DNA from: Escherichia phage UP19
Reading direction: 5' to 3' (one strand)
Length of the DNA stretch: 64,000 nucleotides
Sequence record: OX638288
Shown here: one piece after another, positions 49,153-50,718 of the stretch
Layout of the letters: each line of letters starts with the position of its first letter
How positions within the stretch are numbered: the first letter of the stretch is position 1
Notes under the pieces: model-generated
What the model was told of the DNA's origin: nothing
Databases searched by the model: none
The model's input: only the letters and a program-made list of their open reading frames with translations
Translations under genes and position numbers: made by a program

Positions 49153-49647
49153 ATGGATATTTTTGATATGTTACGTCAAGACGAAGGTCTTGATTTAAAT
49201 CTTTATAAAGACACTGAAGGTTATTGGACTATTGGTATTGGCCAGTTAGTTACCAAGAACCCATCTAAAGATGTTGCTCGTGCCGAACTTGACAAACTTA
49301 TGGGTCGGGTTTGCAATGGACGTATTACTATGGCTGAAGCTGAACAACTCTTTAACCGTTCAGTGGAAAATGCTCGTAGAGCTATAATGCGTAATCCTAA
49401 ATTGAAACCGGTTTATGATGTGCTGGACGAAGTTCGTCGTTGCGCGCTGATTAATATGGTCTTTCAAATGGGTGAAGCTGGTGTCGCTGGATTTACCAAC
49501 TCTCTGCGTATGCTCCAGCAGAAACGTTGGGATGATGCCGCAGTTAACCTGGTGCAGTCCCGTTGGTATAAGCAGACTCCGAATCGCGCTAAGCGAGTTA
49601 TCTCTACATTTAAAACAGGAACTTGGAAAGCATATGAAAACCTATAA
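49153..49647 (+). CDS. e: Endolysin (T4 lysozyme)
   Basis: 164 aa; catalytic E11, D20 and T26 conserved; roughly 70% identity by eye to T4 lysozyme as remembered. Confidence 0.93.
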
Positions 49648-49903
49648 AGAATTTTTGGCCGAATCTCAACTGAACGAAAACACTGACCTAGACCGTATGA
49701 CATTCCTGGCTAAGAAAGGCGGCTTCGAATTTAAAGCCATTAAGAAAGTAAATGGGTATTCTTTTGAAGTCGGTGAATATACCTTTGGTAACAAGGGTGA
49801 TGGCCAGTGGCAAATTGTTAAAAACGGCAAAGAAGTAGACTACCTTTTCGGTAAGAAACTTAGTGACATTGCTAAAATAATGGGCGAATATTCTAAAAAA
49901 TAG
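49634..49903 (+). CDS. Internal-protein-like gene ([10 protein letters not shown]|S)
   Basis: Capsid-targeting leader; ATG 49634 overlaps the 3' end of e. Confidence 0.6.
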
Positions 49904-49931
49904 TTTACATCTCCTGTATGCATGATATTAT
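49903..49931 (+). promoter_or_regulatory. Early promoter module; spacer CTCCTGTA pairs with the denV SD TACAGGAG
   Basis: GTTTAC 49903-49908; TATTATAGACCTATCAA. Confidence 0.6.
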
Positions 49932-49959
49932 AGACCTATCAATTACAGGAGATTACAAA

Positions 49960-50376
49960 ATGACTCGTATCAACCTTACCTTAGTATCTGAATTGGCTGA
50001 CCAACACTTAATGGCTGAATACCGTGAATTACCACGTGTTTTCGGTGCAGTTCGTAAGCATGTTGCTAACGGTAAACGTGTTCGTGATTTTAAAATCAGC
50101 CCTACTTTTATCCTTGGTACAGGCCATGTTACATTCTTTTATGATAAGCTTGAATTTTTACGTAAGCGACAAATTGAGCTTATAGCCGAATGTTTAAAAC
50201 GTGGATTCAATATCAAGGATACTACTGTCCAAGACATTTCCGATATTCCACAGGAATTCCGTGGTGATTATATTCCTCACGAAGCTTCTATCGCTATTTC
50301 ACAAGCCCGTTTGGATGAAAAAATTGCACAGCGTCCTACCTGGTACAAATATTATGGTAAGGCTATTTACGCTTAA
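49960..50376 (+). CDS. denV: Endonuclease V (pyrimidine-dimer DNA glycosylase)
   Basis: [31 protein letters not shown].. appears near-identical to T4 DenV as remembered. Confidence 0.92.
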
Positions 50377-50418
50377 TTAAATCCGTGATAGAATACTTCT
50401 ATCAACTTAAGGAATAAT

Positions 50419-50718
50419 ATGAAAACTTATCAAGAATTTATTACAGAAGCCAAAGCTCCTAAAGCATTCCAAATAGGTGTCCAAGGCACCTTAGACCAAG
50501 AATATGTTGATGCTATTGTAGCAAGCCTCGGTAAACAGGGCGTACAAGTGGATTTGGTTGATTTTACTAAAGGTAATACTTTTAATATTGTTACATCTAA
50601 AGGCTCTTTAGCTAAAGTTAAAAAGGCCTTTGGTGTAGCCCAAGCATACGAAATCGACCACTCTGAATTAGAAAATAAAGGTCGCCAGAATACAATTAAA
50701 GGTTCTGGTTCTTTCTAA
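50419..50718 (+). CDS. Internal-protein-like gene (MKTYQEFITE|AK)
   Basis: Capsid-targeting leader; 99 aa against 100 for T4 IPII. Confidence 0.6.
   Translation: MKTYQEFITEAKAPKAFQIGVQGTLDQEYVDAIVASLGKQGVQVDLVDFTKGNTFNIVTSKGSLAKVKKAFGVAQAYEIDHSELENKGRQNTIKGSGSF

Follow-up and report, generated by a model that had tools for sequence, protein, structure and literature searches.

Two small open reading frames (ORFs) in a stretch of 64,000 nucleotides (nt) of Escherichia phage UP19 (sequence record OX638288; the whole stretch is called the window here), ORF89 and ORF99, quite probably encode packaged and processed internal head proteins of the T4 type. They lie on either side of the DNA repair gene denV. 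Both had been singled out in a first-pass annotation as genes with a capsid-targeting leader flanking denV, ORF89 with an ATG at 49634 that falls 14 nt inside the 3' end of the lysozyme gene e in a different frame. The two ORFs, their leaders, their position around denV and the overlapping start were all found as described when the reading frames were inspected, and the internal-protein assignment itself was upheld by the leader residues, the locus, the basic mature domains, the presence of gp21 and gp22 and annotated relatives. The window phage is T4-type and Dhakavirus-like (JS98/JS10 group); from 48.6 to 51.5 kb it showed about 94-96% nucleotide identity to IME281 and JS10 across about 90% of the length.

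In the T4 internal protein IPIII, a leader made of the first 10 residues is enough for encapsidation; its positions 4 and 7 (Tyr and Phe) serve targeting and positions 8 and 10 processing, gp21 cleaving after L/I-x-E with Glu, not Asp, at position 10, and propeptides in T4 are 10-19 residues long (PMC9026906). ORF89 starts with MKTYKEFLAE followed by SQLNE, and ORF99 with MKTYQEFITE followed by AKAP, so that both carry Tyr4 and Phe7 and a gp21 motif at residues 8-10 (L-A-E and I-T-E, respectively). The mature parts would be small, basic and lysine-rich (8.4-9.5 kDa, pI 9.0-9.3), with about 8.4-9.0 kDa and a pI of about 9.1-9.3 for ORF89, 9.5 kDa and a pI of about 9.0 for ORF99, and 10-13 Lys in 74-89 residues. 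Inside these mature domains no further L/I-x-E site was found, which is weak evidence since by our estimate about 0.8 would be expected by chance. The likely processing machinery is encoded in the same window, with cognate gp21 and gp22 as well as gp23 and gp20, and ORF89 and ORF99 lie at a hypervariable internal protein (Ip) locus, such loci being the e-denV region or the surroundings of 57B/ipI.

A second L-N-E is present at residues 13-15 of ORF89, is kept in at least 90% of the ORF89 family and could yield a 15-residue propeptide. In two related loci (L011, L027), a 93-amino-acid (aa) ORF directly 3' of e carries the leader variant MKTYNEFLTVTTLNE, which lacks Glu10 and retains L-N-E at 13-15. 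Because this variant keeps the second motif without Glu10, it suggests that residues 13-15 are the functional gp21 cut in leaders of the ES(x)LNE type, including those of ORF89 and of the ORFs at 37992 and 41178. The latter two belong to a set of six leader ORFs in the window (37478, 37766, 37992, 41178, 49634 and 50419), whose leaders are pairwise alike at 21-32 of 33 nt and whose mature domains showed no mutual similarity by BLASTP. The number is, as the first-pass annotation had it, about twice the T4 complement of three (PMC12373910, PMC9026906). It is nevertheless unremarkable, because JS10 has three such genes and one related locus four in this region alone, and because the literature counts many Ips: more than 30 variants (Repoila 1994 and Comeau 2007, as cited in PMC2839356) and at least 10 in related phages according to Silas et al. 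(PMC12373910).

ORF89 and ORF99 are genuine genes and their leader pattern is not due to chance, as judged from the nucleotide similarity of the leaders, from dedicated PHROG families and from low ratios of nonsynonymous to synonymous polymorphism (pN/pS). ORF89 matched phrog_8765 ("internal virion protein") end to end with an E value of 5e-36, and ORF99 matched phrog_2667 ("internal head protein") with 5e-43. In codon-level comparisons, pN/pS was 0.02-0.24 for ORF89 against three homologues and 0-0.38 for ORF99, values that place both under purifying selection. ORF89 has matches in 42 phage records, with identities of at most 76.5%, and a 99%-identical counterpart on a 173-kb metagenomic contig; its 13 homologue clusters all carry the leader and share 35 invariant columns. 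A profile search of 1.84 billion representative proteins added a handful of relatives, the full-length ones all leader-bearing, down to about 35% identity. The same search returned short repeat-level matches to Big_13 Ig-like domains in large surface proteins, which we set aside as motif-level and uninformative. ORF99 was found by tblastn in 283 phage records, the distant members being annotated ip7. JS10 EpJS10_0110 and IME281 gp163, the latter annotated "internal head protein", match it with 100% identity, and Ip7 of CC31 (YP_004010004) does so with 47.8% over 98% of the length. An identical form of ORF99 is thus already annotated, and ORF89 adds a new allele to a family that has an annotation.

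The AlphaFold2 model of ORF89 (mean predicted local distance difference test score, pLDDT, of 84) consists of a helix, five strands and a helix. The AlphaFold model of ORF99 (mean pLDDT 76) shows a ferredoxin-like beta-alpha-beta-beta-alpha-beta arrangement with a C-terminal helix, and in both models the mature domain was compact and the leader of low confidence. Scans of the two proteins with Pfam, NCBIfam and PADLOC gave nothing above noise, profile searches with them against PDB sequences gave no match, and Foldseek against BFVD found ORF89's own family alone. A search of the literature for proteomic data on virion proteins of the JS98 group or the Ip7 type returned nothing usable.

The overlap of ORF89 with e turned out to be a widespread, conserved junction that, on comparison of related loci, is normal for this phage group. 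Of the 26 related loci where e could be located, 12 share the −14 junction, GCATATGAAAAC(C/T)TATAA, and four others have a −4 overlap. The e proteins upstream of the −14 junction are 62-98% identical to that of the window, and six or seven kinds of mature domain follow it (132/131-aa, ORF89-type, 93-aa, IpIII-like, IpII-like and 115-aa). In the window, the end of e reads GCA TAT GAA AAC CTA TAA (A-Y-E-N-L-stop) and the ORF89 frame ATG AAA ACC TAT AAA (M-K-T-Y-K). In T4, e ends with ...GCG TAT AAA AAT CTA TAA, whose +2 frame closely resembles a leader start and in which one A-to-G change makes an ATG. This resemblance implies a natural near-homology between the leader and the 3' end of e. We infer that the −14 junction arose by recombination between similar e-end and leader sequences, and that it would persist through placing the cassette under the late promoter of e and coupling its translation to e. 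The motif TATAAATA at 49123 is the only perfect late motif on the plus strand between 41142 and 55512, and in T4, too, perfect late motifs in this region occur only upstream of e. ORF89 has a weak Shine-Dalgarno sequence and no promoter of its own; e probably supplies it with late transcription and translational coupling.

On its right side, ORF89 is bordered by a promoter, TTTACA-16-TATTAT, which abuts the stop codon and lies inside a 9-bp inverted repeat (TCTCCTGTA/TACAGGAGA) that also bears the Shine-Dalgarno sequence of denV. Upstream of ORF99, consensus matches point to a sigma70-like promoter (TTTACG-17-TAGAAT with TG), a hairpin (GATAGAA/TTCTATC) and a Shine-Dalgarno sequence, AAGGA. 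In an alignment with IME281, collinearity extends past the end of e into the first part of the leader, breaks off within or after the leader and returns exactly at the stop codon. The e-denV slot is occupied by an unrelated 132-aa leader gene in IME281, by ipIII and the same 132-aa gene in JS10 and by an ORF89 homologue in Gaprivervirus UPEC07. In a set of 27 related loci, between one and four leader genes were present in the two slots, with 12 or more unrelated kinds overall, and the ORF99 slot can be empty, as in locus L005, which has no ORF99. The 132-aa protein that replaces ORF89 (IME281 gp161, at 2535-2933 of locus L001; JS10 EpJS10_0112, at 3224-3622 of locus L002) ends in ...NWMKTYK*, a leader-like C-terminal MKTYK that looks like a scar of an earlier leader-leader recombination.

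Identities of neighbouring genes differed sharply within a single comparison. Between the metagenomic contig and the window, nucleotide identity was 95.8% for ORF89, 80.5% for e and 87.3% for denV; the window denV is 90.9% identical to that of T4 at the nucleotide level. Compared with UPEC07, denV is about 70% identical whereas the adjoining ORF99 is 95% identical, from which mosaicism appears to act at the scale of single genes. Cassettes also change place, both from one Ip locus to the other and inside a locus, judging from the differing placement of the ORF99/Ip7 family: the CC31 gene (1971-2279) follows 57B directly, at the other Ip locus, and some loci of the Klebsiella type (L015, L018, L022, L025) have the gene downstream, not upstream, of the RNA element described below. 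Hypervariable IP loci are described as bearing early-promoter/stem-loop elements (Repoila 1994, in the account given by PMC2839356). The slot pattern seen here, with the leader on the left and a promoter and hairpin on the right, matches such cassette shuffling at Ip loci.

Taken as a mechanism, this would mean that the precursors are made late, ORF89 being transcribed from the e late promoter and translated in coupling with e through the 14-nt overlap. The leaders would dock the ORF89 and ORF99 precursors onto the scaffolding core, and gp21 would cut after Glu10 and, in the case of ORF89, perhaps after Glu15 as well. The resulting mature proteins, basic and about 9 kDa in size, would stay with the DNA, be injected into the next host and inhibit a specific host defence there, by analogy with T4 Ip1-3. 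The genes would be exchangeable cassettes anchored for recombination by conserved sequences on both sides: on the left the leader, which in this phage merges with the 3' end of e, and on the right either a promoter/hairpin or the RNA element.

This anti-defence role is, by analogy, the most likely function. T4 Ip1, Ip2 and Ip3 each inhibit one distinct type IV restriction enzyme of the GmrSD type, and the same authors propose that all genes of both Ip loci act likewise (PMC12373910). Both Ip loci of the window lie among counter-defence genes. A homologue of the anti-CBASS (antiphage signalling system based on cyclic oligonucleotides) protein Acb1, gene 57B, at 37026-37481 (+), overlaps by 4 nt with the GTG start of the leader gene at 37478; an Acb2/Tad1-hairpin homologue (vs.4) at 51907-52185 (+) follows 1.2 kb downstream of ORF99; and a deoxynucleoside monophosphate kinase typical of modified-cytosine phages is found in the neighbourhood. 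These surroundings are consistent with a counter-defence role. Two results weigh against GmrSD as the specific target: when ip4-10 of T4-like phages, an ip7 among them, were assayed on the GmrSD panel, no inhibition was reproducible (PMC12373910 supplement), and ORF89 and ORF99 have no sequence or fold similarity to Ip1-3. No family, fold or solved-structure match of either pointed to an activity or target. Granted that the proteins are packaged, we rate the chance that they are specific anti-defence inhibitors as slightly below even. A bolder proposal, that the ORF89 family is injected and inhibits a host defence other than the GmrSD variants targeted by Ip1-3 and that, in addition, the e/leader junction is a selected docking site which ties cassette synthesis to lysozyme and serves as the left anchor for swaps between genera, seems to us rather doubtful.

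The main competitor would keep ORF89 and ORF99 in the head and give them a structural or physical role, in charge neutralisation of the DNA or in core and head assembly, instead of an anti-defence one. The basic, lysine-rich nature of both mature domains would suit such a role, as would the T4 precedent, where each IP has a copy number of about 300, lysines of the IPs contact DNA phosphates and heads assemble at half the rate once IPIII is lost (PMC9026906, PMC3012670). However, unrelated folds swap freely in the slot and the ORF99 slot can be unoccupied, which fits a dispensable, host-specific function better, and all three T4 Ips have specific defence targets (PMC12373910). We therefore regard a mainly structural or physical role as unlikely, though clearly less so than the two explanations that would take the proteins out of the head altogether.

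According to one of these, translation of ORF89 does not start at 49634, or the ORF is a decaying remnant of cassette exchange, its overlap with e having come about accidentally through a deletion. Its weak ribosome-binding site, the missing promoter and a start buried in e could be read in this way, but a remnant would hardly combine low pN/pS, invariant columns across 13 clusters and a confidently predicted fold. Nor would one expect the −14 junction to be maintained behind such divergent e genes and then to lead into intact ORFs that belong to six or seven kinds, and the RefSeq record of IME281 annotates a coding sequence from the equivalent ATG; we consider this explanation very improbable. 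The other, to which we give marginally less credence still, sees in the 30-nt leader mainly a DNA recombination linker, the proteins being cytoplasmic in the producing cell and not encapsidated. The leaders are indeed alike at up to 32 of 33 nt and coincide with cassette breakpoints. Distant members nevertheless keep the amino acid pattern (MKTFDEFITE, MKTFQEFMTE, MKTLKEMILE) while the nucleotides diverge, and the conserved residues are those mapped functionally in T4, 4, 7, 8 and 10, within the 10 residues that are sufficient there (PMC9026906). Packaged internal proteins thus remain our preferred explanation of ORF89 and ORF99.

The features of the region, together with those of the head genes in the same window, are collected in Table 1. 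Downstream of gp23 (3877-5436), two tandem paralogues of about 426 aa, at 222-1502 (−) and 1502-2785 (−), match the Gp23 capsid family; this pair looks like a duplicated gp24 vertex protein. Within the vs.7-like ORF, a weak match to an Rfam group II intron domain at 51416-51498 (+), below threshold with 23.9 bits against a gathering score of 40 and an E value of 0.12, is most likely due to chance.

Table 1. Features of the e-vs.8 region and head genes discussed in the text (positions in the window)
Feature	Position	Strand	Basis
gp22, scaffolding core protein, expected target of the leaders	5458..6273	−	Pfam T4_CASP, E 5.5e-90
gp21, prohead protease, enzyme expected to remove the leaders	6304..6939	−	Pfam Peptidase_S77, E 1e-103
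nudE, gene 5' of e	48667-49122		
Late-promoter motif of e, TATAAATA	49123..49130	+	sequence motif
e, lysozyme	49153..49647	+	Pfam Phage_lysozyme
ORF89, probable internal-protein gene, 89 aa	49634..49903	+	leader, phrog_8765, pN/pS, AlphaFold2 model
Dual-coding e/ORF89 junction, 14 nt	49634..49647	+	reading frames; related loci
Right border of the ORF89 cassette, early-type promoter and inverted repeat	49904..49952	+	
denV, pyrimidine-dimer glycosylase, between the two ip slots	49960..50376	+	Pyr_excise
Putative upstream signals of ORF99	50366..50413	+	consensus matches only
ORF99, probable internal head protein gene of the Ip7 family, 99 aa	50419..50718	+	leader; phrog_2667
Pseudoknotted RNA-like element, non-coding, right flank of the ORF99 slot	50720..50858	+	
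vs.8-like gene	50879-51406		

Another observation concerned the 160-nt non-coding gap between ORF99 and the vs.8-like gene. The stretch after ORF99 is far more conserved than its surroundings and was found by blastn in 985 phage records, almost always unannotated. In T4 (NC_000866.4, about 64,796-64,939, minus strand) it lies within the annotated 5' end of vs.8, in the first 44 or so codons. We rejected the reading of this GC-rich stretch as the 5' part of vs.8, as the T4 annotation has it: in 28 related loci the frame through it spans 19-54 codons, its stops vary, and it is in frame with vs.8 in some loci and out of frame in others; since the frame is not conserved, the element is non-coding. 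Relatives start vs.8 at a downstream Met (MKFLTP... or MRTFLTG...), and the start of T4 vs.8 is probably mis-annotated.

The element contains an invariant core of 32 nt, ACCUGUAAUAAGGUCGAGCNNNNGNGCGGUAA, at 50780-50811. The core also occurs beside tRNA clusters in Vequintavirus-like contigs of about 130-140 kb, and within tRNA arrays of the same strand. The helix 5' of it differs wholly in sequence between contexts and is always complementary: pairings, most of them computed and a few read by eye, were GGGAA/UUCCC, GGGAG/CUCCC, GGGG/CCCC, GGAAC/GUUCC, GAAUGU/ACAUUC, GUGUAU/AUACAC, AAAGG/CCUUU, AAAGC/GCUUU and AAAGA/UCUUU. The pair that closes the core was A-U in 9, U-A in 5, U-G in 5 and C-G in 3 of 22 cases and was never broken. 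A 33-pair model that contains a pseudoknot was 99.7% paired in 18 window-type sequences, and five of its pairs showed double changes, compared with none in slid controls, many of these changes being shared by one clade and so reflecting few independent events. The pseudoknotted fold is thus backed by compensatory changes. Folding of the single sequence gave no significant z-score, and Rfam 15 held no family matching the element even at E ≤ 10. The core sequence was not found in the literature searched, and no copy of the element was present in the genomes of 185,579 bacterial species or in complete genomes of E. coli. It is a good candidate for an undescribed structured phage RNA, and we incline to a stable small RNA over a leader tied to a specific gene, because the genes downstream differ by context and some copies sit in tRNA arrays.

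Internal proteins are cargo that a T4-type phage delivers ahead of gene expression. Because the three studied T4 Ips each disarm a different restriction enzyme, each new Ip cassette is a candidate inhibitor of an undescribed defence and may help to determine the host range of therapeutic phages. The practical outcome here is a clean annotation of two ip genes, their families and their cassette borders, with an e overlap that is normal. The finding is correct but ordinary and leaves current understanding unchanged; the adjacent RNA element may be the more valuable lead.

When compared with T4 itself, the locus shows both strong likeness and clear differences. The T4 leader of IPII and IPIII, MKTYQEFIAE, agrees with that of ORF99 in 9 and with that of ORF89 in 8 of 10 residues; the T4 proteins, too, are small and basic when mature, with a gp21 site at positions 8-10, and IPII resembles ORF89 and ORF99 in its lysine content, its pI of about 9 and the lack of further L/I-x-E sites. 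The order is e-ORF89-denV-ORF99-vs.8 in the window and e-ipIII-ipII-denV-vs.8 in T4. The first-pass annotation had placed both ORFs where T4 carries IPIII and IPII, which is right for ORF89, in the same slot between e and denV, but does not apply to ORF99, which lies past denV, a place without an ip gene in T4. After e, T4 has an 87-nt spacer with a promoter, whereas ORF89 overlaps e. It had also pointed to IPII and IPIII for comparison of the mature domains; by BLASTP neither the ORF89 nor the ORF99 mature domain aligned with them at E ≤ 10, and by this measure the two are not orthologues of IPII or IPIII. The targets of T4 Ip2 and Ip3 are GmrSD variants (PMC12373910). True homologues do occur in relatives, as ipIII in JS10 and as IpII-like genes in two related loci (L021 and L018).

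The closest counterparts are found in other phages. ORF99 is, by sequence identity, a member of the Ip7 family (CC31 ip7, JS10 EpJS10_0110, IME281 gp163; phrog_2667), although the CC31 gene stands at the 57B-proximal locus. ORF89 is a profile match to phrog_8765, with members in Pectobacterium phage PM2, Edwardsiella phage PEi20, Enterobacter phage CIP9, Gaprivervirus UPEC07 and others. UPEC07 and CIP9 share its slot and the order e-ORF89-denV, UPEC07 having an 8-nt gap in place of the overlap with e. T4 IPI* (Ip1), a GmrSD inhibitor of solved structure, provides the concept of a leader-bearing injected protein, and its beta sheets between N- and C-terminal helices (PMC3012670) loosely resemble the helix, five strands and helix predicted for ORF89. 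Finally, the ORF89 cassette ends at a sigma70-type promoter within a 9-bp inverted repeat, like the T-even early-promoter/stem-loop elements (Repoila 1994) and the PeSL cassettes (Arbiol 2010, PMC2839356), the T-even elements being analogues, not homologues, of the PeSLs of RB49 (PMC2839356).

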